From assembly GCA_903916195.1 (NCBI GenBank), contig CAIWVP010000148.1, forward strand, positions 10,396-74,395: 64,000 bases of DNA. The letters run 5' to 3'. The translations under genes were made by a program, and so were the position numbers. A model generated the notes under the pieces. The model ran no database searches. It was not told where the DNA came from and was given only the letters and a program-made list of their open reading frames with translations. This document shows, piece by piece, positions 20,912 through 51,001 of the stretch. The stretch is from an uncultured Verrucomicrobiota bacterium. Its GTDB lineage: Bacteria; Verrucomicrobiota; Verrucomicrobiia; Limisphaerales; UBA9464. Numbering within the stretch: the first letter of the stretch is position 1; each line of letters opens with the position of its first letter.

Positions 20912-21211
20912 GGTTTCGGGTTCCGGTTCACCGGGAACAACCGCCCTGGATGCTTCAAGGCTGCGGAGGGTTGTATCCTTGGAACGCACCCGAGCAGCGG
21001 GGATACCAATGGCCCGATATCATCCATGAAAGCTATGAATCGAACGGCGACGATCCATGCGGATAGCTGTGAAACGATTGGATCGACCTCGCTTACACGC
21101 TCGAAGTCTCCCCGCACCGGTGGCCCCACCTCGGATCTCCACTGGTGGCCCGGTGGCCGCTTTTGGACACCCTGTCCAGTTGATCGGCTTGCGGCCGGAG
21201 ATCGGGGGACA

Positions 21212-28837: not shown

Positions 28838-29659
28838 ATGCTCCGCCAACGCTCATCCGACGGCTGGCACCTGATCCGCCATCCCGACCACGCCAAGCTG
28901 GCAGGCGAGTTCGCCAAGCACTGGGGCAACGACCTCTTCCGTCCGCCCGAGCCGCGCGACGACGTCATCCACGGCATCGCCAGCCACGACGACGGCTGGG
29001 CCGAGCGCGACCAGAAACCGCTCGTCACCCGTGCCGGCAAGCCCAGCGCCTTCGGTGCGGACCTCGTCGGCCGGTACACCGCCTTCGAGGAGATCGACCT
29101 CCAGGACTACCTCGGCGTGCGCGGCAACGCGCTCGAGGTCGTCGCGCACCGCAACCCCTACGCGGCCATCCTCATCTCGATGCACACCTGCAACCTGCTC
29201 ACCGAGCACGCCGACAGGACCACCATCAGGCCGACCGAATTGCCGTTGCTCGACGCCTTCGTGGCCCAGCAGACCGACAGGCAATGGGAGCTGAGAGCCG
29301 TCTGCGGCGATTCGGGGAAGTACACCGACATCGCTTTGTCGGCCGAGATGTTGCGCCAGCACTTCTGCCTGCTGCAGGCCTGCGACAACCTCTCGCTCCT
29401 ATCGTGCGTCGATTTCGACGGCCCGGCCTCGTTGCTGCACGCCTTGCCGACCCAGGACGGCGGTTTCCGGACGGTGGCGGTGAAGCGGGTCGGACCACGT
29501 CGCTTCAGCTTGGATCCGTATCCGTTCGACCAGGCGTCGATGAGCTTCCCGATCCCGGCCCGTCGCGTGCACGGGGAGACGTTCGCCCAAGTGACCGAAC
29601 TTCAGGCCCGGTACGCTGCGGCGCCGGAAGAAACCCTCATCGTGGAGATCGTGGGATGA
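28838..29659 (+). CDS. hypothetical protein, DUF3891-like with HD-like metal motif
   Basis: 273-aa ORF with ATG at 28838, 4 nt after the permease stop. The N-terminal pattern WHLIRHPDHAKLAGEFAKHWGN...IHGIASHDDGW resembles what I recall of DUF3891 and HD-type phosphohydrolase motifs. The family assignment is from memory only. Confidence 0.5.
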   Translation: MLRQRSSDGWHLIRHPDHAKLAGEFAKHWGNDLFRPPEPRDDVIHGIASHDDGWAERDQKPLVTRAGKPSAFGADLVGRYTAFEEIDLQDYLGVRGNALEVVAHRNPYAAILISMHTCNLLTEHADRTTIRPTELPLLDAFVAQQTDRQWELRAVCGDSGKYTDIALSAEMLRQHFCLLQACDNLSLLSCVDFDGPASLLHALPTQDGGFRTVAVKRVGPRRFSLDPYPFDQASMSFPIPARRVHGETFAQVTELQARYAAAPEETLIVEIVG

Positions 29660-31419
29660 AGACACGTTCCTTTTTCGCCCTCCTGTTCGCCTTGGCGCTG
29701 GTGCCCACCGCGGCGCAGGCCGCCCAGAAGCTCATCCCCGTGACCATGCAGCTCGACTGGAAGCCGAACGTCCAGTTCGCCGGGCTGCTGTTGGCGAAGG
29801 AGAAGGGCTACTACGCCGAGGCGGGTCTCGACCTGACCCTCCGTCCGGTCGGCACGGAGATGAAGGTGGCCGAGGACGTCGCCACCGGCACCCACTGGAT
29901 CGGCTGTTCCGAGAGCGGCGTCCTCATCAACGCCCGCGCCGAGGGGCTTCCCATCAAGGCGTTCGCCACCATGTTCCAAGGCAGCCCTTTCTGCCTGATG
30001 AGCCTGAAGCCGAAGGGCATCACCGAGCCGAAGCATCTCGTCGGCAAGACGCTCGGCGTGCATCCCGACGCCAACAAGGCGCTCGACATCGTCCTCGCCC
30101 ATGCCGGCGTGGACCGGTCGAAGATGACCTGCATCGACGTCGAGCACAGCATCCAGCCGTTGATCAGAGGCGAGGTCGATGTGCTCATGGGCTATCTCAT
30201 CGACGAAGCCGTGGCGCTGGAGACGGCCGGCCACGCCATCAACGTCATCCCCGGCTACGACCACGGCTACGTGGCCTACTCGCAGGTCTATTTCACCAGC
30301 GAGGAGTTGCTGAGGCGCGACCCCGGGCTCGTGCAGAAGTTCCTCGAAGCGTCGAACCGCGGCTGGCGGGAGGCGTTCAAGGACATCCCGGCCACGGCCA
30401 GGTTCGTCGTCGGGAAGTTCATGCCCGGCGCGGACCTGAAGTATCAGACCCGGTCGCTGGAGAAGATCGCGGCCATCTCGGCCCGCGAGACCGGAGCCGA
30501 ATGGCTCGGCACGATGAGCTGGGACCGTTGGGTGGAGATGTGCGTCGTGTTCGACCAGTCGAAAGTCTTGAAGAAACCCGTCACGGCCGGAGAGATGACC
30601 GACTTCTCGGTCCTTGCCTCGGTCTATCGGCCCGTCATCGCGACCTTCACCAATTCGCTCGGACAGAAGTTCGTCCCGCTTCCCGGGACCGGCGCGCGCA
30701 TGGCCATCTGGGAGACACGGCTGAAAGATTTCCGCACGTTCGTCGAGGAGACGAGGCACGACGCCACGGCCGGGATGTCCACGCTGGGCGCAGAGGACCA
30801 CGACTGGCTGCCGGACGGGCACACGTGGAAGGACCCCGGTTTCCCGCAGACGGAAGACCATCCGGTCGTCGGCGTGGACTGGTACGACGCCGACGCCTTC
30901 TGCCGTTGGCTGACCCACAAGGAACGCAAGACGGGCACCATCGGTCCGAAGATGGCCTATCGACTTCCGACCGACCTCGAATGGAGCGCGGCCATCGGAT
31001 CGGACCAAGAGGCCGGCAGGACGCCGGAGGAACGGCTTTCGAACGGGCGGGAAGTCTATCCGTGGGGCGCTTTCTGGCCGCCGCCGAAAGATTTCGGCAA
31101 CTATGCCGGGACAGAATCCGCCGCCGGCAAACCTTCGTGGTGGGGAACGATCCCCGGCGGCTATGAGGACAAGTTCGCGCGCAGCGCGCCGGTGGGGAGC
31201 TTCGCGCCCAACCGGCTCGGGATATACGATCTCTCGGGCAACGTGTGGGAATGGTGCGAGGACGCCTACACCACCTCATCCATCGCCAAGATCATCCGGG
31301 GAGGCTGCTGGGGAAGCGATCGTCCGGCCTACCTGCTCTCGACCCGACGGAACAACGTCTTCCCCAAGATGAGGAACGACGAGACCGGCTTCCGCGTCGT
31401 GCTGGCCGGGTCGAAATGA
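29656..31419 (+). CDS. fusion protein: NMT1/THI5-like periplasmic binding domain + FGE-sulfatase (SUMF1/EgtB/PvdO-like) domain
   Basis: The ATG at 29656 forms an ATGA overlap with the previous stop.
- Signal peptide: MKTRSFFALLFALALVPTAAQA.
- aa ~25-320 resemble the other two binding proteins (IPVTMQLDWKPNVQFAGLLLAKEKGYYAEAGLDL).
- aa ~331-587 carry FGE-domain hallmarks (MAIWETRLKDFRTFV, HPVVGVDWYDADAFCRWL, YRLPTDLEWSAA, GIYDLSGNVWEWCED, IIRGGCWGS, GFRVVL). Confidence 0.8.
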   Translation: MKTRSFFALLFALALVPTAAQAAQKLIPVTMQLDWKPNVQFAGLLLAKEKGYYAEAGLDLTLRPVGTEMKVAEDVATGTHWIGCSESGVLINARAEGLPIKAFATMFQGSPFCLMSLKPKGITEPKHLVGKTLGVHPDANKALDIVLAHAGVDRSKMTCIDVEHSIQPLIRGEVDVLMGYLIDEAVALETAGHAINVIPGYDHGYVAYSQVYFTSEELLRRDPGLVQKFLEASNRGWREAFKDIPATARFVVGKFMPGADLKYQTRSLEKIAAISARETGAEWLGTMSWDRWVEMCVVFDQSKVLKKPVTAGEMTDFSVLASVYRPVIATFTNSLGQKFVPLPGTGARMAIWETRLKDFRTFVEETRHDATAGMSTLGAEDHDWLPDGHTWKDPGFPQTEDHPVVGVDWYDADAFCRWLTHKERKTGTIGPKMAYRLPTDLEWSAAIGSDQEAGRTPEERLSNGREVYPWGAFWPPPKDFGNYAGTESAAGKPSWWGTIPGGYEDKFARSAPVGSFAPNRLGIYDLSGNVWEWCEDAYTTSSIAKIIRGGCWGSDRPAYLLSTRRNNVFPKMRNDETGFRVVLAGSK

Positions 31420-37935: not shown

Positions 37936-39732
37936 TCACTCGAACAAGGGGAGCACCTTCATGCCGGTCACGTGGACGAGGCCCATGTCGGTGATGCGGA
38001 CCTCGGGGATGACGGACAGCGGGATGAGGTTGAAGCCCATGTAGGGCAGCGCGCACCCCAACGCTTCCCAGGCCCTCTTCAGCGCGATGGTCTCCAGCCG
38101 GACCTCGCGCGCAGGTTTGTCGGAGAGCAATCCGGCGACCGGCAACTCGATCATCGCGACGACCTTGCCGCCGTCGGCCACCACCACCCCGCCTTGCTTG
38201 GCCTTGATCGCCTCCAACGCCACGCGCATGTCGCGCTCGTTCGTGCCCGCGATGATGACGTTGTGCGCGTCGTGGCCCACGCTGCTGGCGACGGCGCCGC
38301 TCTTGAGGCTGAAATCCTTGAGCAGCCCGAGCCCGACGCGCTTCGAGCGGCCGTGGCGTTCGACGACGCTGACGAAGCAGAGCCCGTGCTGCTTGAAGTG
38401 GTCTTCCCACGATGCGGCCGGAGCCAGCTCGATGCGTTCGTGGAAGGTCAGGATGCCCGGAAGCGCGACGCGGATGGCGTTGGCCGTGACGGTCTTCGTC
38501 GGCAACCCGGGCGTGAGCGGGATGTCGTCGGCGATCTGGACGGTGCGATAGGCGGCCGCGGGATAGGTATAGCGTTGCTTGGCGACCTGCTCGGCGAGGA
38601 GCTGCGTCGGTTGGCGGTCCTCGACCATGAGCTGGCCGCCGAACCAGGTGTTCTGCACCTCGAGCGCGTCATCCAACAGGACGATGTCGGCCCGGCGCGA
38701 ATGGCCGAGCCCGCCGAACTCGCCGTCGAAGCCGTAGCGTGTGGCGCCGTGGAGCGACCCCATGCTCCACGCCGTCCCGGGCTTCACGCCGGCGACGACG
38801 GCTTGGCGCGCGACCCAGTCGAGCCCGAAGAGGAACAGGTCGTCCGCGTCGCGGTCGTCGGTGCAGATGCAGACCCGCTTGGGGTCCGCGCCGAGCTCGG
38901 TGACGGCCTTGATGGCGAGCGGGAGCGAATGCCACGGCGTCGCGGGGTTGCCACCGCGCAGGAAGATCCAGATGCCGGCCTCAAGGAAGTCGGCGGCGAT
39001 CTCGCGGTCGATCGATTCGTGCGTGTCCGTCACGCCGGAGGCCGCGTAGGCGGCGACGAACTCGCGTCCGTAGATGTGGCCGCAGACGGGCCGGCCGCGC
39101 TTGAGCGATTCGGCGATGACGCCGTGGCTGCGTTCGTCGCCGAGGCAGACCGGTATGAAATCCATCTTCTCCCCCAGCGAGACGGCTTCCGGCCAACGGT
39201 CAAAGAGCGCGCCGACCTTGGCGGGCGTAAGATCGCCGCCGGCGGTCTCCAGATCCGGATTGGTGGCGGGGACGGTGCTCGGGACGGTGAGGAAGATGTT
39301 CAGCGGCGCCTGCCGTGAATCCTCCAGCATCCAATCGATGCCGGCGGTGTCGCAGACGTTGCCGATCTCATGGCTGTCACAGAAGAGCGTGGTGGTGCCG
39401 TTGATCAACGCGGCCTCGGCGTAGGCGCAGGCGGTCATCATCGAGGACTCGATGTGGACGTGCGGATCCACCAACCCCGGCGCGAGGATGCCGCCGCGGG
39501 CGTCGTAGAACCGGGCGGCCAGGCCGAGCTTCTTGGCATCACCGGCCGCCTTCACCGCGGCGATGCGGCCGCCGCTGATCCAGATCTCGCGGTCGGGCAA
39601 GGTCCGCTCCGTGTAGGTGGACAACACACGCGCACCGGTGATGACGAGGTCCGGCGCGGTGCGTCCGGACGCCACGGCGGCGAGATGGCGGGTCATCTGC
39701 CAGAGCGGCGCGACGGAGAAACGGGTGATCAT
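37936..39732 (-). CDS. ade: adenine deaminase
   Basis: 598-aa ORF with ATG at 39732. The amidohydrolase motif is [14 protein letters not shown]. The length and overall pattern ([11 protein letters not shown]..., C-terminal domain ...MGLVHVTG) are typical of Ade-type adenine deaminases. Confidence 0.9.
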
Positions 39733-39771
39733 AGGGTGGTGGTCCGGGTTCGGCGGTGGATTGTCACGGGT

Positions 39772-40173
39772 TCAGAAGGACGCGCTGACCGGGTGGCTGG
39801 CACGGAGGACGGAGACCTGCTTGAAGCGTTCCTTGAACAAGGTGCGGACCGCTTCGATCGATGCCTCCGGTCCCGGCTTCGGCCCATGGATGATCACGAG
39901 CATCCGCGAGGGCAGCTTCCGGACCTCGCCCGACGGCGCACGCCACTGTCCCTGCATGTCGAAGACGCTGAAACCATCGGGGAAACGCGGCGTGACGACC
40001 GTCGCGAGGAAGTCCGACCACTCGGCGGGATCCACGGCGCCGAAGTAGAGCTCGGTCCGGATCAACGCTGCCGGCGACCGGGCACCCGATGTGGCGCAGC
40101 CGGAAAGAAGGACCGCGAAACCGACCAGCAGCGAAAGAAGCGACTTCGTCATCCGGCCTCCGTGCTTGGTCAT
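39772..40173 (-). CDS. DUF3574-type lipoprotein
   Basis: The ORF has a lipobox (LLSGC). The mature part, TELYFGAVDPAEWSDFLATVVTPRFPDGFSVFDMQGQW...RMLVIIH, matches my memory of the DUF3574 family. The start is at 40173 or at the second Met at 40152. Confidence 0.6.
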   Translation of the reverse strand: MTKHGGRMTKSLLSLLVGFAVLLSGCATSGARSPAALIRTELYFGAVDPAEWSDFLATVVTPRFPDGFSVFDMQGQWRAPSGEVRKLPSRMLVIIHGPKPGPEASIEAVRTLFKERFKQVSVLRASHPVSASF

Positions 40174-40176
40174 GGT

Positions 40177-40749
40177 TCACCCTTCTCCGGATCCACGCAG
40201 GCGGTAGATCGCGGGATAATTCATGTGCCACGAGCTGTCCTCCATGCCGTGGCCCGCGAGCCATTCCTTGCCGGGATAACGGAAGGCCGCGAAATCGGGA
40301 CTGAAGACCGGGTGTTCCAAAAGGCGATGCACGAGCACGGCGGCACGGACCTCGACCGCGCCGCGTTCGAGGCAGAATCCCCGCATGTGCGCCATCGTGC
40401 GGCCGGTGTCGCAGATGTCGTCGATCAGCAGCACGTGGCGGCCCTTGAAATCGGCCTCGGACCATTCGACCGCCACGCGTTCGGCGAGGCCGCCGTTCAC
40501 GTTCGGGACATAGCCACGGCAACGGCAGAAGGTGGCTTCGATGGAGACAGGGACGGCCTGGAGCAGATCGGAGAAGAAGAACACCGCGCCGCGCAGGATG
40601 CAGACGGCGAGGACCTGTTCGCCGGTCCTCTGGAGGACATCGACCGCCCACGGCGTGATCTCGGCGGCGACCTGTCGGACGCCCTCCTCCACCGCCTGGG
40701 TCGGGTACAACTCGTCGTAGTGCGAAGGGATGGGACGCGGGGCGCTCAT
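40177..40749 (-). CDS. type I phosphoribosyltransferase (hypoxanthine/purine PRT-like)
   Basis: 190-aa ORF. The PRPP-binding motif is RHVLLIDDICDTGRTM, and the overall layout is Hpt-like. The stop of the upstream gene is 1 nt from its start. Confidence 0.8.
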   Translation of the reverse strand: MSAPRPIPSHYDELYPTQAVEEGVRQVAAEITPWAVDVLQRTGEQVLAVCILRGAVFFFSDLLQAVPVSIEATFCRCRGYVPNVNGGLAERVAVEWSEADFKGRHVLLIDDICDTGRTMAHMRGFCLERGAVEVRAAVLVHRLLEHPVFSPDFAAFRYPGKEWLAGHGMEDSSWHMNYPAIYRLRGSGEG

Positions 40750-40750
40750 G

Positions 40751-41827
40751 TCAGGAAGCGGCGGCTGGGCCGGCGAGGTGGTAGACGGGACCGTCGAGCC
40801 CCTTGCCCGGCCAGTTCACCTGGTCGATGTCGAGACGGCGGACCTGATCGGCGAAGACGGGATCCAGCAGCAGTTCCAGCGCGATGGGCGCCAGCGCGGG
40901 CGTGGATGGAAACGGGACGACCAGCGGTTCGATGCCGATCGACCGGAGCATCGTCACCGCGCGACCCGCGAGATCGGCATCGGTGGCCGTGGGTCCTTGG
41001 AAGATCCAAACCGGCTTGGGCGCCGCGGCGAGCTGCTGGAACGGGCCGTGCGCGAGCTGCAGCGGTTCGATCAGCACGGGGGCGTCCCAGAAAAGTCCCT
41101 CGACGAACTTGCAGGCGACATTCTGCGCGAACTCACCGGCCGGCGCGGGAAGCAGGATGACGCCGCCGGATCTCCATCCATCGATCTGTGACGTCAGGTC
41201 CGCGCCCAGTGCCGCACCGATGGAGCTGTCCGCGAGGCGAAGCAGCGGATCCGACTGCGGCGCCAGCCGGGGCAGGCGGCTGCCGGGAAGGGCCTCGACG
41301 AACTGATGCGCGGCGACGAAGCCGCAGGCCGGGCCGATGATGCGGATAAGGAGGGTGTATTCGTCCTCGATGGGGAACGGGACGATCTCCGCGCCGGCCT
41401 TCACCCACTTTGCCAGCAGGTCGGCGCGGTCCGGTCTGCCGGCGGCCTGTTGGCCGGCCCCGGTGGCGGAGGTGAACACCAGCGTGTGGGTGAACGCACC
41501 GGCCTGGTCCAGGGCGAGCCGGGCGTTGGAGGAAAGTCCTTGGCTGAAGATGGCGAGCGTCTGGTCAGAGGCCCACGGACCGACCGGTACGACGAAGGCC
41601 GCCAGCGGAACGAAGCAGGCCGGGATATCGGTGAAGGTGTTGAGCAGCCACGCGAAGTAACGGGCCTGCGCCTCGGAACTGCCGATGCCCGTGGCCACGA
41701 CGCGCCGGACCCGATCCGATGCGGGCATCTTCGGCACGAACGGCTTCGCCAGCATGTCGCGGATCGATGCCGGGACCTGCGCGACGCGCCCGTCAAGGAG
41801 TCGGTGGCCTCTGGGATCCCCGTTCAT
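40751..41827 (-). CDS. double-SIS-like (sugar-phosphate isomerase/deglycase-like) protein
   Basis: The ATG at 41827 forms an ATGA overlap with the upstream stop at 41824-41826. RVVATGIGSSEAQARYFAWLL resembles the SIS GxGSS loop. The C-terminal half carries PLQLAHGPF, similar to the E..HGP motif of GlmS/AgaS/FrlB-type SIS proteins. The assignment is tentative. Confidence 0.45.
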   Translation of the reverse strand: MNGDPRGHRLLDGRVAQVPASIRDMLAKPFVPKMPASDRVRRVVATGIGSSEAQARYFAWLLNTFTDIPACFVPLAAFVVPVGPWASDQTLAIFSQGLSSNARLALDQAGAFTHTLVFTSATGAGQQAAGRPDRADLLAKWVKAGAEIVPFPIEDEYTLLIRIIGPACGFVAAHQFVEALPGSRLPRLAPQSDPLLRLADSSIGAALGADLTSQIDGWRSGGVILLPAPAGEFAQNVACKFVEGLFWDAPVLIEPLQLAHGPFQQLAAAPKPVWIFQGPTATDADLAGRAVTMLRSIGIEPLVVPFPSTPALAPIALELLLDPVFADQVRRLDIDQVNWPGKGLDGPVYHLAGPAAAS

Positions 41828-43398
41828 TCGGAGAGCGAGCTGTCGTCGAGGAAGATCCACTTGTGGACGTCGATGCCGTGGTCGTTCAACGCCAAGGAAT
41901 ACTCCTTCTTCCGGACGAGGCTCGACGGCGAGTTCATCACCATCTGGATCTTGCCCGGAGGGAAGTGATGCTTGAGCAGGCGCATGATCGAGTCGTAGTC
42001 CCGGCTATCATAGCCGACGCCGAGGCGTCGGTAGGCTTCGTCGCTGGAGAAGGATTCGCCCTCCTCGGTCAGCATCCGGTCGGTGGCATACGCACCGAAG
42101 CCCGCGCCACGGCCGTCGAAGTAGAGCAGGAAGATGGCACCGACCCCGTAGTGGACGATCTCCTGGACCGAACGCTTGAACTTGTTGCGGTTGTCGATGC
42201 TGACCAGCGGGAAGCGGTCGAAGAGCGACTCGCTCTGCAACCGGACCACGGGCACGTCGTAGAGCAGCGGCTTCCCATAGGTCAGCACGACCGCCTCCTG
42301 GCTGGTGACGATGTCGAAGTAGACATGGACCCGGAACCAGTAGGGCGTGGTCAGCAGCGTGGAGACGGGGGAACCGGGATGCTCCCGCTTGTGACGGGCG
42401 ACGTTCTTGGGGTCGATCCGGACCAGGAGCCGGTTGCCGCGGATGACGTAGTAATCGAGGACCAGGGGGGCTTCGCCGCCCATGAAGCTCTCGATCTTCG
42501 TCTCCCCGAACAGTTGGTGGAACCGCTCCTCAGGCAGGACGATCTCGTCGTCGACCGGCTTGACGGGCAGGAAATAGGACGCGGCGTAGATGAACCGTTG
42601 AGCGTCGGGCAGCGCATGGGGTTTGAAGGGCGACACGGGCTCGGGCGGGAGCGCCCGGATCACCTGGGGGCCGTTGGACTGGGTCAGGCTGTGCCCGGAA
42701 TCCGCCTTGGAACTGAGATAGGCGGCGTTGAACGGAGACGGTTCGAACTCCAGCGCCTCGGTCCCCGCGACCTTGAGCCCGTGGGACGTCATCGCCGCGA
42801 TCTTGTCGGGATTGTTGGTCAGCACGATGAACGGCGCCTTGATGCCCAGCAGGTAGCAGATGTCCGCCACGTCCTCGTAGCTCCGATGGTCCTTGCGCAG
42901 CCCCATGGCCCGGTAGGCCTCGAAGGTGGAGATCTGGTCCAGCGATGCCTGCACCACCATCCGGTCGCGCGCCTTGGCCACGTAGCCGACGCCACGGCCC
43001 TCCTGCATCAGGTAGAACAGGATGCCGTTGCCCTTCTCGCCGATGACCTTCAACGCGCCTTCGAGCTGTTGGACGCAATCGCAATCGCAGCCGCGCAGGG
43101 TCTCGCTGGTCACACAGGAGGAATGGATCCGGGTGTGGAGCTGCTCCGCCTTGGAGATGTCGCCGTGGGCAAGGGCGATGATGTAGCCTTTGTGGATGAT
43201 GTCCTGGAACACGTAGGCGTCGAACGGCCCGAAGTGCGTCTCCACCGTGCAGCGGGCGAGGAACAGCGTCGTGCCGTGCAACGGCCGGTCCTCCAGGCTC
43301 GATCGATGGACCACCGAACCCGGTTCGTGCTGGAGCTGGTCGACGAGGAGCCGGAGCGCTTCGTGGGTGGACCAGGACGGGATGGGATCGGTGTTCAC
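41824..43398 (-). CDS. tandem GTP cyclohydrolase II-like protein (intact N-terminal domain, degenerate C-terminal domain)
   Basis: 524-aa ORF with a GTG start at 43398. The first half carries the RibA-type zinc triad context (RIHSSCVTSETLRGCDCDCVQQLEGAL) and FYLMQEGRGVGYVAKARD. The second half repeats the fold (VRLQSESLFDRFPLVSIDNRNKFKRSVQEI ... FLLYFDGRGAGFGAYATD), but all three Cys positions are replaced. Confidence 0.75.
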   Translation of the reverse strand: MNTDPIPSWSTHEALRLLVDQLQHEPGSVVHRSSLEDRPLHGTTLFLARCTVETHFGPFDAYVFQDIIHKGYIIALAHGDISKAEQLHTRIHSSCVTSETLRGCDCDCVQQLEGALKVIGEKGNGILFYLMQEGRGVGYVAKARDRMVVQASLDQISTFEAYRAMGLRKDHRSYEDVADICYLLGIKAPFIVLTNNPDKIAAMTSHGLKVAGTEALEFEPSPFNAAYLSSKADSGHSLTQSNGPQVIRALPPEPVSPFKPHALPDAQRFIYAASYFLPVKPVDDEIVLPEERFHQLFGETKIESFMGGEAPLVLDYYVIRGNRLLVRIDPKNVARHKREHPGSPVSTLLTTPYWFRVHVYFDIVTSQEAVVLTYGKPLLYDVPVVRLQSESLFDRFPLVSIDNRNKFKRSVQEIVHYGVGAIFLLYFDGRGAGFGAYATDRMLTEEGESFSSDEAYRRLGVGYDSRDYDSIMRLLKHHFPPGKIQMVMNSPSSLVRKKEYSLALNDHGIDVHKWIFLDDSSLSE

Positions 43399-43617
43399 TT
43401 GCTTCGGGTGGCGACCTCGCGAAGAACGGTAGGCATCTGTCGTGCCATGGCGGAGACATCCGCGAAGCCGGACCGGTGGCCCACGGAAAATCAGCCAGGA
43501 TTATCAGGTGGAATGGAGCCTGCTTTCCTCGACCGTCGGCTGTCAGAGCCGGCACCTTGCAGCTCATCCTCACAATAAAGCGTCAGCGCCTGTCCGTTGT
43601 TGGCCACCCTGCCTAAA
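43399..43617. promoter_or_regulatory. divergent control region between the GCHII-like operon and the receptor/purine-nucleoside operon
   Basis: 219-bp non-coding gap between divergent starts (43398 minus strand, 43618 plus strand). I could not recognise purine-, TPP- or preQ1-riboswitch core motifs in it. Confidence 0.3.
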
Positions 43618-45942
43618 ATGAAACCCCGAAACAGCATCACCACCTCACTGGCTTCGTTGAGCCTGGCCGCCCCCCTGCTCGGACAGACCAACGCGCCGTC
43701 GTCCCCCCGGGAAACGACCGTCTTCGACCGTGTCGTCGTGGAAGGGGTCCCCCTCGAGGAGCTGATCGTGCCGACGGCCCGGCCCTTCAGTTCCGTGTAC
43801 GGCACGGACCGTTCCATCCTGGATACGCCCCGCAACGTCACCATCATCAGCCGCGCCCAGCTCGACGCGATCTCGATCAAGGACGTGCGCGACTTCTCCA
43901 AGCTGACCTCCAGCTCATACACCCGCTCCAATTTCGGCGCCCCGACCACGCCCGACATCCGGACGCAGATCGCCGACACCTACAGCAACGGCATGCGCAT
44001 CGGCCTCTCGTCGAACGGCAACGGCCTGCCGGTGAACTTCAACTCCGTCGAGTCTGTCAACATCGTCAAAGGCCCGGCCACCGCGGTCTACGGCCCTTCG
44101 CAGTACGTCGGCGGCTACATTGATTACATCACCAAGAAGCCGTTCTTCGACAAGTTCCAGGGCTCCGTCTTCGGCGAGGTCGGCATGTACGACCAGTACC
44201 GTTGGGGCACTGATTTCGGCGGCCCGATCTCGAAGACCCAGGCGTATCGCATCAGCTATTCCGGCGAGGATTCCGGGAGCTACTACGGCGACGGCTTCAA
44301 GAAGACCGAGGCCGGGTACGGCGCCTACAGCTGGATCCCGAACGACACGTACGAGCTGGCCCTCAACGCCGAGTACTTCTGGGGCAACTACACCGAGAAC
44401 TTCGGCATCAACCGCGTCACCCAGGAGCTGATCGACGACGGCATCTACCAGACCGGCACGAACATCAACGGCGGCACCTCCGCCAGCGCCGCCGACCCGC
44501 AGAACGCGAAGAACGTCGTGTCCGGCTTCCCGACCAGCAACACCATCGGCCTCGGGCCCAAGGTGAAGATCGACCGAGCCCTGCGCACGCTGAAGCCGGG
44601 CGACGATTCGGAGGGCCACTCGGTCAACCTCCAGGCGATCCAGACGGTGAAGCTCAGCGATTCCGCCACCATCGCGAACAACACGTTCTACCGCTACGTC
44701 GACCGCGAGACCTACAGCTCGTACTACTACTCGGAGATCATCGACCCGAGCTGGAGCGTCGAGAACCGCACCGAGGTCCGCCTCGACCTGGAGAAGCACA
44801 AGATCAACACCGGCCTCTCGCTCCGCTACCAGGAGGTCACGGCCTACAACGATTTCTTCTTCGAGCCCGCCAACGCGTGGGACCTGACGAAGGACCACGA
44901 CTTCATCGACATCACCCGGTCGGACGCCTTCATCGCCTCGACCAAGAACGGCGACCGCGTGGCGGTGCCCGGCTGGGCGGGCCGCTACTACACGCCCTAC
45001 AACGGCGATTCCGGCCACTCCGAGGCCCTCACGGCCGCGCCGTTCATCCAGGAGGACTGGCACATCACCGAAAAGCTGTCCGCCCTCGCCGGCGGCCGCA
45101 TCGACGTGCTCAGCACCAGGTACCAGGATCCCGCGGGCTACCTCAAAGGCGACTCGACCGTCGTCGGCCTGCCCAACGGCAACGGCAGCCTGATCTACAA
45201 GTGGACGCCCGAGTTCTCGACCTACGGCACCTACAATTATAGCCAGAACCCGGTCGGCGCGACCGGCAACGGCGGCGGCATCACCACCGCCGGCAACGCG
45301 GACTACTCGAACGCCATCCTCCGCAACGAGGCGATGCTGTACGAGCTCGGGGCGAAGCAGACGCTCTTCGGCAACCGGCTGTTCCTGAACTTCGCCTTGT
45401 TCCAGCAGGACCGCGCCGACCTCCAGCAGGACCGCTCGATCGTCAAATTCCTCACCCGCGGCGTCGAGTTCGAGGCCAACTACCAGCCCAACCGGAATCT
45501 CTTCCTCACGTTCGGCTATTCCTACATGGATTCGACGGTGGACCAACCGCAGTTCGACGTGGGCAACACATCGCTCACGCCGGCCTCCGACCGGTTCTTC
45601 ACCATGGACCCCGCGGACGCCCCGTACCGTCGACAAGGCGTCCCGGCGCACCTGATGAACCTCCTCGTCTCCTACAAGTTCGACAACGGGTTCGGCGCCA
45701 GCGCGAACCTGGTCTTCACCAGCGAGATCAACAACAACGTCAAGGGCACCCTCGTCATCCCCGCCCAGTACTCGCTCGACCTGTCGGCGTTCTACACCCA
45801 CAAGCGCTTCGAGGCCCGCCTCTCCGCGCTCAACGCGACCGACGAGAAGAACTGGAGCGCTCCGAACGCCGTGTACGGCAACGAGTCCATCATCGCGGAC
45901 CTTCCGTTCCGGCTCGAAGGCCGCGTGACCCTGAAGTTCTGA
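43618..45942 (+). CDS. TonB-dependent receptor (paralog of 18455..20911)
   Basis: The track ORF starts at a TTG at 43597. The ATG at 43618 gives a signal peptide (MKPRNSITTSLASLSLAAPLLGQ). The plug reads ILDTPRNVTIISRAQLDA...VESVNIVKGPATAVYG. It shares the string GINRVTQELIDDGIY with the other receptor. The terminal sequence is ...EGRVTLKF. Confidence 0.9.
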   Translation: MKPRNSITTSLASLSLAAPLLGQTNAPSSPRETTVFDRVVVEGVPLEELIVPTARPFSSVYGTDRSILDTPRNVTIISRAQLDAISIKDVRDFSKLTSSSYTRSNFGAPTTPDIRTQIADTYSNGMRIGLSSNGNGLPVNFNSVESVNIVKGPATAVYGPSQYVGGYIDYITKKPFFDKFQGSVFGEVGMYDQYRWGTDFGGPISKTQAYRISYSGEDSGSYYGDGFKKTEAGYGAYSWIPNDTYELALNAEYFWGNYTENFGINRVTQELIDDGIYQTGTNINGGTSASAADPQNAKNVVSGFPTSNTIGLGPKVKIDRALRTLKPGDDSEGHSVNLQAIQTVKLSDSATIANNTFYRYVDRETYSSYYYSEIIDPSWSVENRTEVRLDLEKHKINTGLSLRYQEVTAYNDFFFEPANAWDLTKDHDFIDITRSDAFIASTKNGDRVAVPGWAGRYYTPYNGDSGHSEALTAAPFIQEDWHITEKLSALAGGRIDVLSTRYQDPAGYLKGDSTVVGLPNGNGSLIYKWTPEFSTYGTYNYSQNPVGATGNGGGITTAGNADYSNAILRNEAMLYELGAKQTLFGNRLFLNFALFQQDRADLQQDRSIVKFLTRGVEFEANYQPNRNLFLTFGYSYMDSTVDQPQFDVGNTSLTPASDRFFTMDPADAPYRRQGVPAHLMNLLVSYKFDNGFGASANLVFTSEINNNVKGTLVIPAQYSLDLSAFYTHKRFEARLSALNATDEKNWSAPNAVYGNESIIADLPFRLEGRVTLKF

Positions 45943-45968
45943 ACCGGCCCGCCGTTCCTAGGTCCGGT

Positions 45969-45996
45969 GGCCACCACCCGCCCGCGGGTGGTGGCC
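45969..45996 (+). other. perfect 12-bp GC-rich hairpin between the receptor and NUP genes
   Basis: ggccaccacccg (45969-45980), loop cccg, cgggtggtggcc (45985-45996). No T-run follows, so it is more likely an intra-operon processing or stability element than a strong terminator. Confidence 0.5.
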
Positions 45997-46028
45997 TTCC
46001 GGTCCGACCTTCCCCGAACCGACATCCC

Positions 46029-47072
46029 TTGCAAATCCATCGCTTCGCTCTCTCCGTGATCCTTGGCGGTTGGGTCGGGTCGGTCGCCTGGGCGTCCGAC
46101 CTCATCCGCCCGAAGGTCGTCGTCGTCGCCACGTTCGAGATCGGTGCGGACACCGGCGACAAGCCCGGCGAGTTCCAGTTCTGGGTCGAGCGCGCCAAAC
46201 TGACAAATTCGATCGTCGTCCCCGGCGTCGACCGGCCGCTGCGCCACAACGACGCCGGCGTCTACGGATTCGTCTCCGGCACCACTGTCCGCAGCGCCGT
46301 GCAGGTCATGGCGCTGTTGGCCGATCCGCGGTTTGATTTCTCGAAGAGCTACTGGCTGGTGAACGGCATCGCGGGCGTCGATCCCGAGAACGCCTCGGTC
46401 GGCAGCGCCGCATGGGCCCGCTGGGTCGTCGATGGCGACATCGCCTACGAGATCGATCCACGCGAGGCGCCGGCCGGTTGGCCCTACGGTATCGTCCCCA
46501 TCGGCGGCAAGAAGCCCAACGAGATCCCCAAGAACGCCGACTGGGCCCCGAAGCCGATGGCCTGGAAACTCGATCCGGCCTTGGTGGACTGGGCTTTTTC
46601 GCTGACGAAGGACATCACCATCCCCGAGACCGACGGTGCCCGGAAGCACCGCGCCGAGTTCGTCGGCTTCGAGAAAGGCTCCGCACCGCCCAAGGTCATC
46701 CTTGGCGAAAGCCTCGGTTCCTGCCGCTACTGGCACGGCACGGCCATGACCCGGTGGGCCAACGACTGGACCCGGCTCCACACCCAGGGCGAAGGCGACT
46801 TCGTCATGACCAACATGGAGGACCACGGGATCTGCACCGCGATGGAACGGATGGCCAAGCTCGGCAAGGTCGATTTCCAGCGCCTGCTCTTCTTGCGCAC
46901 CGGCAGCAACTACTGCACGCCGCGCCCGGGCCAGAGATCCTCCGAGAGCATGACCGAGGAATACAGCGGCATGGAGCCCGCCCTCGAATCCGCCTGGCTC
47001 GCCGGCAGCAAGGTGATGGATGCCTTGGTCGATGGCTGGGCCACCTTCGAGAAAACGCCTCCCAAGCCATGA
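46029..47072 (+). CDS. NUP-family 'purine nucleoside permease' homolog (exported, PNP-like fold)
   Basis: 347-aa ORF with a TTG start at 46029 and a signal peptide (RFALSVILGGWVGSVAWASD). PKVVVVATFEIGADTGDKPGEFQFWVER...WLVNGIAGVDP...RYWHG...MEDHG matches my memory of the NUP family (PF06516). Confidence 0.75.
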   Translation: MQIHRFALSVILGGWVGSVAWASDLIRPKVVVVATFEIGADTGDKPGEFQFWVERAKLTNSIVVPGVDRPLRHNDAGVYGFVSGTTVRSAVQVMALLADPRFDFSKSYWLVNGIAGVDPENASVGSAAWARWVVDGDIAYEIDPREAPAGWPYGIVPIGGKKPNEIPKNADWAPKPMAWKLDPALVDWAFSLTKDITIPETDGARKHRAEFVGFEKGSAPPKVILGESLGSCRYWHGTAMTRWANDWTRLHTQGEGDFVMTNMEDHGICTAMERMAKLGKVDFQRLLFLRTGSNYCTPRPGQRSSESMTEEYSGMEPALESAWLAGSKVMDALVDGWATFEKTPPKP

Positions 47073-48505
47073 GCATCTCCCCGTTTCGCCGCGGCTCCTT
47101 TGCACGCCTGCTTTGCCTTCTCGGCGTCCTGGGTGCTTTCTCGCGCCCGTGCGCTTCCGCGTCGGATTTCGCGGCGCGATTCGACCGGTTCAAGACCAAC
47201 GCCACCCAGGCCGAGCTCTACCGCTTCCTCTACGCAGTCCCCAAGGCCGGAGACCTCCACCACCATGCGGGCGGCAGTTGGCGGATGGAGGACCTGTTCG
47301 CCGTCGCCACCGATACCCGGCGGAACGGCGGCGACCGCTTCTACACCCGGCTGAAGGCGGGTGGCTGCCCGGAGGAGACGAACTCGTGGCGGAAGTTCCA
47401 GACCATCGACCGATCCACGTGGAAGACGCTTCCCGGATGCGCGCAGGAGGAATTCGTACCGCTCGACGCCCTCACCGTCCCGCAGCGCGGAGCGTTCATC
47501 GATTCGCTCCGCCTCGACGCCCCGGGCGAGGGCCGCACCGAGTTCTTCGAGGAGATCTGGCCGCGTCTCGGCGCGTTGAGCCGCAGCGTGGAGGTGTTCC
47601 TGGAGATGACGGTCGAGACGGCCAAGCGCTACGGCGCCGAAGGCGTGCGCTATCTGGAGCCGCAGACGATCCCGGTCGGCCTGGTGGATGCCCAAGGCGC
47701 GGCGGTCGATCCCGAGGAGTTCCATCGCCGATTGAAGGCCCGTCTGGAGATGCCCGATGCGAAGGCGACCGGCGTCGAGATGCGTTGGCAGGTCGTGGTG
47801 CTGCGTTTCACGCCCGTGGCCGAAAAGGGGGTCGAGCAGGCCCACGATTTCGTCGACCGCCACCGCGACCTGTGGGTGGGAATCAACATGGCCGGCCGCG
47901 AGGACAACGACAAAGGACACCCGCGGCGTTTCCTCGACACCTACCGGAAGATGCGCCTCAGACATTCCGGCATCGGCCTCGCCATCCACGCCGGCGAAGT
48001 GGACGAACCCAATCCCCACATGCGCGACACGTTGCTCCTCGGCGCCACACGGCTCGGCCACGGCAACAACATCCTGACCGACGAGGACCTCCTGCTCCAC
48101 CTCCGCTCCGGCATCGCCATGGTGGAGATCAACCTCGTCAGCAACCTGCTGCTCGGATACGTGGACACGTATGCGCAGCACCACTTCCCCGAGCTGCTCC
48201 GCACCGGCGTCCCTGTGGCGCTCTCGACCGACGACTCCGGTATGTGGGACTCGAACATGACGGACGAGTACATGACCGCCGTGACCGAGTTCGCCCTGAC
48301 CTGGGATGAACTCGTCCGCTGCGGACGCAACTCGCTCACGTGGTCCTTCGCCGAACCGGCCCTGAAGGAGAAGCTGCTCGCCGGCTACGACCGCGACATC
48401 CAGGCCTTCGAGGCCAGGCTCGGCACCGACTGGACCGCCGCGCTCAAGACCGTGAAGCCCGTCAGCTATGGTTTTGCCCTGCGGCGCTGGGGCCTCACGA
48501 ACTGA
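47069..48505 (+). CDS. secreted adenosine deaminase, ADGF/CECR1 (ADA2)-like
   Basis: The ATG at 47069 forms an ATGA overlap. The signal peptide is FARLLCLLGVLGAFSRPCASA. An N-terminal extension precedes the metal motif DLHHHAGGS. Later motifs are GLAIHAGE and ALSTDDSGMWD, typical of the adenosine/AMP deaminase fold. Confidence 0.85.
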   Translation: MSISPFRRGSFARLLCLLGVLGAFSRPCASASDFAARFDRFKTNATQAELYRFLYAVPKAGDLHHHAGGSWRMEDLFAVATDTRRNGGDRFYTRLKAGGCPEETNSWRKFQTIDRSTWKTLPGCAQEEFVPLDALTVPQRGAFIDSLRLDAPGEGRTEFFEEIWPRLGALSRSVEVFLEMTVETAKRYGAEGVRYLEPQTIPVGLVDAQGAAVDPEEFHRRLKARLEMPDAKATGVEMRWQVVVLRFTPVAEKGVEQAHDFVDRHRDLWVGINMAGREDNDKGHPRRFLDTYRKMRLRHSGIGLAIHAGEVDEPNPHMRDTLLLGATRLGHGNNILTDEDLLLHLRSGIAMVEINLVSNLLLGYVDTYAQHHFPELLRTGVPVALSTDDSGMWDSNMTDEYMTAVTEFALTWDELVRCGRNSLTWSFAEPALKEKLLAGYDRDIQAFEARLGTDWTAALKTVKPVSYGFALRRWGLTN

Positions 48506-48560
48506 CGACAAGCACTCCGGCCAGCGTTTCTTCCAAGCGACCCGCGGACATCATCCCGAC

Positions 48561-49883
48561 ATGTTGACACGATTCTTCCGACTCGAACAGCACGGCACGA
48601 CCGTGCGCCGAGAGCTCGTCGCCGGCCTGACCACCTTCGCCGCGATGGCCTACATCCTCGCGGTCAACCCGGCCATCCTCTCGCAGACCGGCATGGACAA
48701 AGGGGCGCTGATCAGCGCCACCGCCTTGGCGTCGGCGCTGATGACGGTGGTGATGGCGTTGGCCACGAACTACCCGATCGCCTTGGCGCCGGGCATGGGC
48801 TTGAACGCTTTCTTCACCTTCGGCATCTGCCTCGGTTCGAAGATGCCTTGGCAGGCGGCGCTCGGGCTCGTGTTCTACAGCGGGGTCGCGTTCCTCATCC
48901 TCACGCTGACCGGTGTGCGGCGAAAACTGATCGATGCCATCCCCCACGAGCTGAAGCTGGCCATCACCTGCGGCATCGGCCTCTTCATCGCCTTCATCGG
49001 ATTGAAAGGGGCAGGCGTCATCTCGGCCCACCCCGCCACGTTGGTCAGCCTCGGCGACATCCGCCAACCAGGCCCGCTGATGGCCCTCGGCGGCATCATC
49101 GTCGCCGCGGTGCTCATCTGGCGGAAGGTGCCCGGCGCCCTCATCCTCACGGTGCTGGGTCTCACGGTCCTCGGCCTCTTCCTGAAGACCACCGGACCGG
49201 ACTCCGCGCCGGTGACGCCCATGCCGGCGTCTTGGGTGTCCGCTCCCGCGTCCTTGGCGCCGACGTTCCTCCAGCTCGACCTCGCCTACTTCTGGCAACA
49301 TTGGCGGGTGTGTCTGCCGCTGCTGCTGGCGCTGCTGTTCGTGGATCTCTTCGACAACATGGGCACGCTCATCGGGGTCTGCCAACGGGCCGGTCTGCTC
49401 GACAAGCAGGGCAACCTCCCGAAGATCGGCCGGGCCCTCACGGCCGACGCGACGGCGGCGATGGTCGGCTCCACGCTCGGGACCTCGACGGTCACGAGCT
49501 ACATCGAATCCGCGGCCGGGGTCGAAGCCGGCGGTCGCACCGGCCTGACCGCCGTCACCACGGCGGGCTGCTTCCTGCTCGCGCTCTTCCTCAGCCCGCT
49601 CATCGCCGTGGTCCCGGCGGCGGCCACGGCCCCGGCGCTGGTCCTCGTGGGCGTGTTCATGATGCAGAGCGTGGCGGAGCTGGACCTGAAGGATTTCGCC
49701 AAAGCCGTCCCGGCGGTCATCACCATGCTGGCCATGCCGCTGACCTTCAGCATCGCGGAAGGCATCGCCATCGGTTTCGTGGTCCACGTGTTCTTCATGC
49801 TCGGCATCGGTCGCGGCAAGGAAGTGAAGCCGCTTTCATGGGGGCTCGGCCTGCTCTTCCTTGCCCACCTCATCTGGAGATGA
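48561..49883 (+). CDS. NCS2-family purine permease (AzgA-type adenine/guanine/hypoxanthine transporter)
   Basis: The ATG at 48561 gives MLTRFFRLEQHGTTVRRELVAGLTTFAAMAYILAVNP. This closely resembles the conserved N-terminus of E. coli AdeQ/GhxP-type permeases. The rest of the protein is polytopic. Confidence 0.9.
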   Translation: MLTRFFRLEQHGTTVRRELVAGLTTFAAMAYILAVNPAILSQTGMDKGALISATALASALMTVVMALATNYPIALAPGMGLNAFFTFGICLGSKMPWQAALGLVFYSGVAFLILTLTGVRRKLIDAIPHELKLAITCGIGLFIAFIGLKGAGVISAHPATLVSLGDIRQPGPLMALGGIIVAAVLIWRKVPGALILTVLGLTVLGLFLKTTGPDSAPVTPMPASWVSAPASLAPTFLQLDLAYFWQHWRVCLPLLLALLFVDLFDNMGTLIGVCQRAGLLDKQGNLPKIGRALTADATAAMVGSTLGTSTVTSYIESAAGVEAGGRTGLTAVTTAGCFLLALFLSPLIAVVPAAATAPALVLVGVFMMQSVAELDLKDFAKAVPAVITMLAMPLTFSIAEGIAIGFVVHVFFMLGIGRGKEVKPLSWGLGLLFLAHLIWR

Positions 49884-50842
49884 CGACACCAACCAGACCG
49901 GAACGGATTCCGCGGACAGGCCTGGATCCGCGGCACGCGTCCGCGTTCTTGTCCCTCGTCTTCGTCGCGGGCTGCGCATCACCGGAACGGACCTCCGGCC
50001 ATGTACGACCTGCCACCCGCTTCATCGCCGTCATGGCGGCCTACGGTCCGGAACTCGCGGCGAACGAAGCCGCGTTCCTCGGGACAGATCCACCGGTCTC
50101 CGTGACCAAGATCAACGGGGTCGCCTTCAAGCATGTGAGGTTCGAGGGACGCGACCTGCTGCTGTTCCCGAGCGGCATGAGCATGGTGAACGCCGCGATG
50201 ACGACCCAGCTGGCGCTGGACCGTTTTCCCATCTCGCATGTGCTCTTCGCCGGCATCGCGGGCGGCATCGATCCCGCCCACCGCATCGGCGACGTCGTCA
50301 TCGCGGACAAATGGTTCCACCATTCCGAGGCTGCTTACCTCAATCCCAAGCCCGACGGGTCCGGCTATGTGAAGCCGGAATATCTGAGACCGCCCTACGA
50401 GAACTTCGGGTTCATGTTCCCCGATCATGTCTGGACGGTCCGTGACGGCATGGAAGAGCCGCAGCGGCAGCCCTTCTTTTCGGCGGACCCATCGCTGCTC
50501 GAAGCGGCCAAACGGGCGGTGGCGACCGTTCCACCGATGACCTACGCCGGCCGCGAGGTGCAGGTGACCGTCGGTGGAAACGGGATCTCCGGGCCCGTCT
50601 TCATGGACAACCGGGAGTATCGCAAGTGGGCCTTCCGCGTGTGGAAAGCCGGATGCCTCGACATGGAATCCACCGCCATCGCGCAGGTCTGCTGGGCCAA
50701 CCAGAAGCCGTTCCTGATCGTGCGCAGCCTCAGCGACCTCGCCGGTGGTCAGGACGGCGTGAACGCCGCCGATTCCACCGAGGGGCCGGTATCACATCTT
50801 GCCGCGTCGGTGGTCCGCGATGTCGTCCGACAGTTGCGGTAG
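49880..50842 (+). CDS. lipoprotein nucleosidase/phosphorylase (PNP_UDP_1 family, MtnN-like)
   Basis: The ATG at 49880 forms an ATGA overlap. The lipobox is FVAGCAS. Family motifs are LLFPSGMSMVNAAMTTQ, FAGIAGGID, LDMESTAIAQVC and IVRSLSDLAGG. Confidence 0.8.
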   Translation: MTTPTRPERIPRTGLDPRHASAFLSLVFVAGCASPERTSGHVRPATRFIAVMAAYGPELAANEAAFLGTDPPVSVTKINGVAFKHVRFEGRDLLLFPSGMSMVNAAMTTQLALDRFPISHVLFAGIAGGIDPAHRIGDVVIADKWFHHSEAAYLNPKPDGSGYVKPEYLRPPYENFGFMFPDHVWTVRDGMEEPQRQPFFSADPSLLEAAKRAVATVPPMTYAGREVQVTVGGNGISGPVFMDNREYRKWAFRVWKAGCLDMESTAIAQVCWANQKPFLIVRSLSDLAGGQDGVNAADSTEGPVSHLAASVVRDVVRQLR

Positions 50843-50875: not shown

Positions 50876-51001
50876 TCACCGCTCGGCGGAGCGCATGGCC
50901 GCGAGGACGCCCATCACCGCGACGACCACCCGCATCTCCACGAGCGTGAACGCGTCGGCCGTGCGGACGGGGCGGAGACGCTGGAGGTTCGGCAGACGCA
51001 T
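50876..51001 (-). pseudogene. 41-codon remnant of a prepilin-type N-terminal domain gene
   Basis: This ORF is not in the ORF track (below the size cut-off). I translated it by hand as MRLPNLQRLRPVRTADAFTLVEMRVVVAVMGVLAAMRSAER-stop. It has a prepilin-like leader and hydrophobic helix but no globular domain. The downstream sequence runs straight into the convergent nucleosidase gene. Confidence 0.35.

Follow-up and report, generated by a model that had tools for sequence, protein, structure and literature searches.

In Bacteroides thetaiotaomicron, the rus system comprises the RusC/RusD pair of the SusC/D type, RusGH, the periplasmic nucleoside hydrolase RusNH, the permease RusT and ribokinases (bioRxiv 10.1101/574913). 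In Pseudomonas aeruginosa, the periplasmic hydrolase Nuh acts on adenosine and inosine and its products are imported, an arrangement that has been linked to the missing inner-membrane nucleoside importers (PMC5437708). Here, we describe a 13-kb purine island (positions 37936-50842) in a 64,000-nucleotide stretch of DNA (hereafter, the window) from an uncultured Verrucomicrobiota bacterium (assembly GCA_903916195.1, contig CAIWVP010000148.1). The island consists of five genes on the + strand, for a TonB-dependent receptor (TBDR), a protein of the NUP family (PF06516), an adenosine deaminase (ADA), a purine-base permease and an MtnN-like lipoprotein, and of a divergent operon on the - strand.

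As in rus, the gene for an outer-membrane TonB-dependent transporter is clustered with that for an exported nucleoside-cleaving enzyme, and the inner-membrane permease imports just one half of the nucleoside. However, rus keeps the ribose (sugar permease and ribokinases), whereas the island, which lacks ribose genes, keeps the base (NCS2 permease, adenine deaminase and phosphoribosyltransferase (PRTase)). The enzyme families are also different (IUNH in rus; NUP, ADA and a relative of 5'-methylthioadenosine (MTA)/S-adenosylhomocysteine (SAH) nucleosidase (MTAN) in the window), and a deaminase step is added, with a step of S-adenosylmethionine (SAM) hydrolysis in relatives. No SusD-like gene was found in the cluster and the NUP gene follows that of the receptor; the arrangement is thus not that of a Sus-like polysaccharide utilisation locus. 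Nuh resembles the flow proposed for the window in that hydrolysis of purine nucleosides takes place in the periplasm and what crosses the inner membrane is the products, but it belongs to the IUNH family, and no receptor, deaminase or base permease gene is clustered with its own. With these precedents, receptor-linked periplasmic nucleoside cleavage is not categorically new, and the initial annotation of the window, which held that such a pathway would be new, overstated the case. What appears to be new from the sequences is the enzyme set (NUP, exported ADA, MTAN lipoprotein and SAM hydrolase), the fact that the base and not the sugar is kept, the phylum and the implied reassignment of NUP; no paper on these elements in combination was found in the searched literature.

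We lean, with modest confidence, towards the island being a purine-scavenging unit of a freshwater Verrucomicrobium that works as follows. The receptor would take up adenosine-type compounds at low external concentration (adenosine, MTA, SAH and 5'-deoxyadenosine, and SAM in the relatives with a SAM hydrolase). The exported deaminase would turn adenosine into inosine in the periplasm; NUP, a soluble enzyme of the MTAN fold with Asn at the position of the leaving-group acid, would cleave inosine or guanosine to hypoxanthine or guanine; and the MtnN-like lipoprotein, which retains the Asp, would free adenine from undeaminated MTA, SAH, 5'-deoxyadenosine or adenosine. Only free bases would cross the inner membrane, via the AzgA/PurP-type permease. 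In the cytoplasm, the adenine deaminase and the HPRT-like PRTase would make nucleotides; these would enter salvage or else be ring-opened by the GTP-cyclohydrolase-II-like (GCHII-like) and SIS proteins, with release of nitrogen. The hairpin behind the receptor gene would cause receptor mRNA to build up, with part of the transcription continuing into the enzyme genes. In this scheme, we infer every activity, the ligand of the receptor, the compartment (periplasm or cell surface) and the co-transcription from what was established directly, namely, gene content, conserved export signals, folds, the mapping of catalytic residues and synteny. The initial annotation, which had read the cluster as capture of purine nucleosides with periplasmic deamination and deribosylation, was based on a real observation, and its interpretation is partly supported. 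In particular, the five genes, the hairpin and both ATGA overlaps were found at the positions that it gave (Pfam and direct reading):

43399-43617, no strand: divergent intergenic region, presumed promoter/operator, 219 bp between the GCHII-like and receptor operons
43618-45942, + strand: TonB-dependent receptor, 774 aa, N-terminal signal peptide (Pfam Plug and TonB_dep_Rec_b-barrel)
45969-45997, + strand: G+C-rich hairpin, 12-bp stem and 4-nt loop (fold of the intergenic RNA)
46029-47072, + strand: NUP-family (PF06516) exported soluble protein, 347 aa, TTG start (Pfam, 343 bits)
47069-48505, + strand: exported adenosine-deaminase-family protein, 478 aa (Pfam PF00962, 125 bits)
48561-49883, + strand: AzgA/PurP-type NCS2 purine-base permease, 440 aa (Pfam PF00860, 155 bits)
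49880-50842, + strand: MtnN-like lipoprotein, 320 aa (Pfam PNP_UDP_1, TIGR01704)

The frame and strand of all five genes are backed by the phase of third-position G+C (the sequence has 66% G+C). The ATGA overlaps, which were read directly, join the NUP stop to the ADA start (47069-47072) and the permease stop to the MtnN-like start (49880-49883). The receptor was identified as TonB-dependent by matches to both PF07715 and PF00593.

The assignment of NUP to PF06516 is far above the cutoff of 27 bits of the hidden Markov model and covers 311 of the 313 profile positions. The protein starts with a signal peptide, with the predicted cleavage between MQIHRFALSVILGGWVGSVAWA and SD; in 30 close homologues, a variable hydrophobic N-terminus and an Ala-rich cleavage-type site are followed by the conserved mature start IRPKV. 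Here and below, export signals were judged from the N-terminal sequence pattern and its conservation among orthologues. The family has 1,466 representatives at 50% identity (E <= 0.001), and signal-peptide-like or lipoprotein N-termini were found in 53 members of a diverse full-length set of 77 (the window protein plus 76 full-length representatives). The function of a membrane permease was considered for NUP and rejected, for no segment of 19 residues reaches 1.6 on the Kyte-Doolittle scale. The AlphaFold2 (AF2) model (predicted local distance difference test score (pLDDT), 87.9) is globular alpha/beta with one N-terminal helix, which is the signal peptide. Foldseek search of the model against PDB gave 625 matches at E <= 0.001, and the top 50 were nearly all MTANs (E about 1e-12, probability 1.0, template modeling (TM) score about 0.65-0.72 on the target); by sequence, nothing in PDB was matched at E <= 1. 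Structure prediction, which had been proposed as a check on NUP, thus gave a model with the MTA/SAH nucleosidase fold. Profile comparison with hhalign also aligned the 77-member NUP profile with an MTAN profile (96.4% probability, E = 1e-9). The diversity of the 77-member profile was needed for this match. The E. coli MTAN sequence that served as the reference is to be taken as provisional; the agreement of the motifs supports it. The catalytic residues were mapped as follows (conservation among the 77 members):

E48: equivalent to MTAN E12, which activates water; conserved in 71/77
M263 and E264: equivalent to MTAN M173 and E174, which bind ribose; conserved in 47/77 and 69/77, respectively
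R290: equivalent to MTAN R193; conserved in 74/77
S293: equivalent to MTAN S196; conserved in 63/77
N294: equivalent to MTAN D197, which protonates the leaving group; Asn in 47/77 (61%) and Asp in 18/77

NUP thus shares with MtnN/Pfs (E. coli, 1jys/1z5o) the fold and equivalents of the whole catalytic set but the leaving-group acid D197, which is Asn in the window protein; in addition, it is about 100 residues longer and has a signal peptide. In trimeric purine nucleoside phosphorylases, which are active and favour 6-oxopurines, Asn is found at the equivalent position. By this analogy, Asn-type NUPs would cleave inosine and guanosine, which fits the overlap of the deaminase gene with the NUP stop codon, and the window protein possibly prefers 6-oxopurine nucleosides. 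On the modelled fold and the mapped residues, we regard NUP as most likely a periplasmic purine nucleosidase.

The Candida albicans NUP, the founding member of PF06516, has as its phenotype the use of external adenosine and guanosine (PMC9431476). The name of the family implies a membrane carrier, whereas the window NUP and its relatives are exported, soluble and folded like enzymes. In yeast, the Candida protein allows an adenine auxotroph to grow on adenosine but confers no toyocamycin sensitivity, which a true nucleoside carrier gives (PMC9431476); this phenotype would fit an extracellular nucleosidase better than a transporter. No other functional data on the family were found. The term "purine nucleoside permease" appeared in the searched literature in fungal or algal work or in annotation lists only, and PF06516 was mentioned in none of it; NUP-annotated proteins are present in the thylakoid-lumen proteome of a cyanobacterium (PMC7880944). 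The family owes its annotation to one yeast complementation; the reading as exported enzymes of the MTAN fold, if confirmed, would correct thousands of annotations. A precedent for a periplasmic nucleosidase outside the NUP family is the purine nucleosidase of Ochrobactrum anthropi, which is reportedly of the IUNH family and has a leader peptide.

The signal peptide of the ADA ends in LLCLLGVLGAFSRPCASA, followed by SD, and the orthologues have a conserved signal peptide with an AxA site ahead of (E/D)FAARF. Tat export was considered and rejected, as the RR of the window protein is not kept in the orthologues, and Sec export was assumed. The protein keeps HxH, HAGE, GHG and TDD, which are all the metal and catalytic motifs; H64-H65-H66, H307-A-G-E310, G330-H331-G and T387-D388-D389 do not vary among eight orthologues. 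Like the animal ADA2/ADGF proteins, the ADA has a secretion signal and extra N-terminal length, is extracytoplasmic by prediction and is paired with a purine nucleosidase; the inventory of Aedes saliva lists both a secreted adenosine deaminase and a purine nucleosidase (PMC1790711). However, the label "ADA2/ADGF-type" that had been given to the protein was not retained, because PF08451 was not reported at E <= 0.01, TIGR01431 scored 62 bits against a cutoff of 315 bits, and, in the profile search, ADA2 (3lgd, 8e-11) was no closer than Plasmodium ADA (6ii7, 5e-23) or ADAL (8qch, 1.5e-20). By its sequence, the protein is an exported, N-terminally extended ADA-family member of no clear subfamily.

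The permease reading frame opens at 48468, and homology begins at the ATG at 48561. The protein has many hydrophobic segments and is 43% identical to E. coli PurP/AdeP over the full 440 residues (E = 2e-113; this reference sequence is likewise provisional), and it matched no NCBIfam model. These data are supportive rather than decisive for its placement in the AzgA/PurP purine-base clade with the start at 48561. No other protein of the cluster spans the membrane several times (hydrophobicity and PurP-like sequence), in line with the initial annotation, in which a base permease is the sole inner-membrane carrier.

The MtnN-like protein has the lipobox LVFVAGC after a hydrophobic stretch. The lipobox Cys is kept in 10 of the 11 orthologues, and the remaining one has a type I signal. 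The protein passes the MTA/SAH nucleosidase equivalog model TIGR01704 (75.5 bits; cutoff, 73.8) and scores below the cutoff of NF004079 (102 bits; cutoff, 169), and its matches to MTANs in PDB reach 1e-18. The motifs D-M-E-S-T and R-S-L-S-D align with M173/E174 and R193 to D197 of MTAN, so that the catalytic Asp is kept. It is thus a direct member of the MtnN family; unlike the classical cytoplasmic MtnN, it carries a lipobox and, when aligned with MTAN, shows an insertion of about 40 residues, and it is predicted to be an MTA/SAH-nucleosidase-family lipoprotein outside the cytoplasm, either periplasmic or on the surface.

That the export signals of NUP, ADA and the MtnN-like protein are artefacts of wrong start codons had been named as what would refute the initial reading. 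In the orthologues (53-94% identical), the signals keep their character while their sequence drifts, and, in each of the three proteins, the next in-frame Met falls within the conserved core, so that a downstream start is untenable. The signals are therefore no such artefacts.

Comparison among genomes provided the strongest evidence. GTDB species genomes were scanned with the NUP alignment, which gave 80 loci (denoted by L numbers), all from Verrucomicrobiota because the back-translated patterns were clade-specific. The loci were compared by tblastn with all window proteins, and L081 was added from a protein look-up. The nearest public contig (L001) is from a lake Verrucomicrobia metagenome-assembled genome with proteins 94-98% identical to those of the window. 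The following counts are lower bounds, because many contigs end early:

receptor gene directly upstream of the NUP gene on the same strand: 21 related loci
deaminase gene after the NUP gene: 17 related loci
GCHII-like gene divergent from the receptor gene: 15 related loci
AzgA permease gene in the cluster: 12 related loci
MtnN-like gene: 11 related loci
exported SAM hydroxide adenosyltransferase gene: 10 related loci

Conservation of the five-gene order, which had been proposed as a check, was thus seen for the TBDR-NUP pair, whereas the ADA, AzgA and MtnN-like partners were variable. Two Chthoniobacterales loci have TBDR-NUP-AzgA with a receptor identity of 44-46%, and L081 has TBDR-NUP-ADA alone in an unrelated neighbourhood.

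The SAM hydroxide adenosyltransferase (DUF62; PF01887 and PF20257) of the relatives has a signal peptide, which is conserved while its sequence drifts. In eight loci, its gene is placed between the ADA and permease genes, and in L003 and L006 it comes downstream of the MtnN-like gene; the ten loci are L004 (9183-10121), L015 (12478-13560), L002, L003, L005, L006, L019, L025, L027 and L068. No such gene was found by tblastn anywhere in the 64-kb window. It is unusual for a SAM hydrolase to be exported, which suggests extracellular SAM as a substrate, and the window cluster is probably a reduced version of an arrangement whose recurring theme is adenosyl compounds, with a substrate range wider than plain nucleosides. 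In four loci, the NUP gene is adjoined by that of a second paralogue, which shares 47-48% identity with the window NUP (L002, 11176-12141; L005, 11164-12129; L052, 8934-9893; L061, 4647-5606); this paralogue has a lipobox (e.g., LLFASC or GFTAGC) and the motif R-T-A-S-N. One orthologous locus has an additional PNP_UDP_1 protein. These data suggest that dissolved adenosine and S-adenosyl metabolites are gathered by abundant Verrucomicrobiota of fresh water via a TonB-dependent receptor and that only the nitrogen-rich base is kept; if this is true, TonB-dependent uptake extends to nucleoside-type cargo beyond Bacteroidota.

Several observations weigh against the scavenging unit proposed here. 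The homology of the receptor is uninformative on its cargo: in PDB, its sequence matched only the enantio-pyochelin receptor (3qlb), a siderophore receptor, and this only in the plug region. Nucleosides are small enough to pass through porins in other bacteria. In about 60 loci of the Opitutaceae type, none of the other window proteins is encoded within 10 kb of NUP, and NUP is also solitary in three other sampled contexts: L082 of Opitutaceae, where it sits between an epimerase gene and secA, and L084 (likely proteobacterial) and L085, the contexts of two more distant family members (<=45% identity to the window NUP). The other look-ups fell on contigs too short to judge. By this distribution, NUP needs no dedicated receptor, and the coupling to a receptor is a clade-specific arrangement rather than a property of the family. 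No characterised bacterial NUP was found in the searched literature, and the change of Asp to Asn inactivates E. coli MTAN, mutant structures of which are among the Foldseek matches; catalysis by NUP is not guaranteed. No transporter or kinase for ribose or methylthioribose was found in the island (Pfam and context scan), which, on the other hand, suggests that the island was built around the base. Finally, a strong terminator-like hairpin lies between receptor and enzyme genes in all orthologues, several with T-tracts, so that the two units could be separate transcripts.

The last point, together with the solitary NUPs of most Opitutaceae and the uninformative receptor homology, would be expected if the receptor stood outside the operon, importing something unrelated on its own transcript that ends at the hairpin, with nucleosides entering via porins; we regard this as doubtful. 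The hairpin starts 27 nt past the receptor stop and has a G+C stem with just TT after it; a simple terminator scan did not call it at 45969-45997. The 96-nt intergenic RNA folds at -44.6 kcal/mol (z = -3.5), and none of 200 shuffled sequences folded equally well. Strong G+C hairpins follow the receptor stop in the window and in all 15 orthologous loci examined, their sequences being unrelated, and those of L003, L006, L008 and L052 are followed by a T-tract. Consistent with a separate receptor transcript is also the third-position G+C content (GC3), which is 0.92-0.99 across the body of the receptor gene (43801-45900), the regional maximum, and about 0.84-0.89 in the NUP and ADA genes; this suggests a much stronger codon bias and expression of the receptor than of the downstream genes. 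However, the adjacency and orientation of the receptor and NUP genes hold in the 21 loci as the receptor identity drops to 44% and the accessory genes vary, and the L081 lineage retains just TBDR-NUP-ADA amid different neighbours. In addition, only 31 nt separate the hairpin end from the NUP start, which leaves scant room for a promoter. Because this gap is too short for an ordinary promoter and leader, partial termination or a processed, stabilised 3' end would be the explanation; the hairpin is thus probably a partial terminator or a stabiliser of the mRNA 3' end with partial readthrough. The receptor mRNA would then be in excess over what reads through into the enzyme genes, and the high GC3 of the receptor gene fits this. 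Scanning of 43399-43617 gave no sigma-70-like promoter, although such a scan is uninformative for Verrucomicrobiota; there was no match to a riboswitch or known RNA of Rfam (E <= 1) between 37 and 52 kb; and a k-mer search for a shared operator in the divergent intergenic regions of 16 loci gave the start-codon context only.

The scavenging unit was also weighed against two readings that change its cargo or its central enzyme. That the true cargo is S-adenosyl metabolites (SAM, SAH, MTA and 5'-deoxyadenosine) from other microbes, and that the window has lost the SAM hydrolase, seems to us unlikely, though it deserves serious attention. Trace-level molecules of about 300-400 Da are plausible cargo for TonB-dependent transport. 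The exported SAM hydroxide adenosyltransferase of the ten related loci and the match of the lipoprotein to TIGR01704 agree with such cargo, as does the reaction of the DUF62 family, for which the formation of adenosine and methionine from SAM is attributed to Deng et al. 2009, as cited in PMC3597751. On the other side, the window lacks the SAM hydrolase by tblastn over its 64 kb, the island has no genes for handling methionine, homocysteine or methylthioribose, and the specificity of the MtnN-like protein, with its insertion relative to MTAN, is predicted only. A reading that we consider improbable makes NUP a non-catalytic periplasmic nucleoside-binding protein that passes its substrate to the ADA or to a carrier, which would explain the "permease" phenotype. 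It draws on the Asn in place of the MTAN leaving-group Asp in the window protein and 61% of the representatives, and on the D197N mutant of MTAN, which binds substrate without turnover. The strong conservation of E48 (71/77), Met-Glu-Asp, Arg and Ser argues against it, as do the trimeric purine nucleoside phosphorylases, which are active with Asn there, and the island encodes no nucleoside carrier. Moreover, an adenine auxotroph with the Candida NUP can grow on adenosine and yet does not become sensitive to a toxic nucleoside (PMC9431476).

The divergent operon was initially described as that of an adenine deaminase and a PRTase; both are present, but they are not alone, and the operon is led by genes for a GCHII-like and a double-SIS protein:

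41824-43398, - strand: tandem GTP-cyclohydrolase-II-like protein, 524 aa, first gene of the operon (Pfam and NCBIfam)
40751-41827, - strand: double-SIS-fold protein, about 358 aa from the ATG at 41827 (AF2 model and Foldseek)
40177-40749, - strand: HPRT-like phosphoribosyltransferase, 190 aa (Pfam Pribosyltran; NCBIfam HGPRT, 80-83 bits, under the cutoffs)
39772-40173, - strand: DUF3574 protein, 133 aa, lipoprotein signal LLSGC (Pfam PF12098)
37936-39732, - strand: adenine deaminase, 598 aa, cytoplasmic (TIGR01178, 349.5 bits, under the cutoff of 472.5, aligned over the full length)

In the GCHII-like protein, the zinc cysteines are retained in the N-terminal half, where RibA is matched (2bz0, 3e-27 over residues 48-238), and the C-terminal half is degenerate. 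The double-SIS start overlaps the GCHII-like stop as ATGA (read directly). This second protein had no match in Pfam or by sequence in PDB; its AF2 model (pLDDT, 93.3) gave as best Foldseek matches the isomerase domain of GlmS, NagB-II and the FraB deglycase (E about 1e-11), and we propose from the model that it may be an amino-sugar-phosphate isomerase or deglycase. Its distant homologues are fused to the Creatininase/formamide hydrolase domain PF02633. The GCHII-SIS pair is kept in 11 related loci. In Opitutaceae (L088, 6544-10807; L089, 6649-10734), an NCS2 permease gene lies ahead of the pair, with genes for an amidase, RidA and Amidohydro_2 nearby.

That the tandem GCHII-like and SIS genes lead the operon suggests catabolism rather than plain salvage. 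The fungal protein URC1 is a homologue of GTP cyclohydrolase II. In the fungal URC route, a PRTase and URC1 degrade uracil via ribosylurea (PMC7530994). By analogy, the GCHII-SIS pair may be a candidate for a hydrolytic pathway that opens the ring of purines or other nucleobases, and it would then be a new module of purine degradation. The PRTase is proposed to make the nucleotide, the GCHII-like protein to open the imidazole ring and the double-SIS protein to free the sugar phosphate from the ribosylaminopyrimidine. It is a rather speculative extension, to which we give little weight, that the whole island is a purines-as-nitrogen regulon, in which a receptor for SAM, SAH, MTA and adenosine with stepwise periplasmic dismantling by SAM hydrolase, deaminase, NUP and MTAN lipoprotein is joined to an oxygen-independent ring opening in the cytoplasm.

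The DUF3574 protein, with the signal MTKSLLSLLVGFAVLLSGC, is placed between the HPRT-like and adenine deaminase genes in this otherwise cytoplasmic operon. The genes flanking the island (TPR, FG-GAP, histidine kinase, hydrolase and Obg) are unrelated to the purine theme. In some orthologous clusters, a Rieske/VanA-like oxygenase gene is inserted (L004, 8160-9170 and the 10136-11143 region; L002, L005, L052, L061 and L059), and in L002, L004 and L005 it is accompanied by that of a second adenosine deaminase of 335 aa without a signal. Rieske N-demethylases act on methylxanthines in other bacteria, and by this analogy methylated purines may perhaps be handled by these relatives as well. A second TonB-dependent receptor, 32% identical to that of the cluster, is encoded in the window at 18455-20989 (- strand) in unrelated surroundings, and a 711-aa protein at 29284-31419 (+ strand) is an unusual fusion of NMT1/THI5-like and FGE-sulfatase (sulfatase-modifying-factor-like) domains. 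Between the MtnN-like and TPR genes, a 41-codon open reading frame (50879-51001, - strand) reads MRLPNLQRLRPVRTADAFTLVEMRVVVAVMGVLAAMRSAER and then a stop; with its prepilin-type N-terminal methylation motif, AFTLVEM, it is probably what remains of a gene of the prepilin-like type that bacteria of the Planctomycetes-Verrucomicrobia-Chlamydiae (PVC) group commonly carry.

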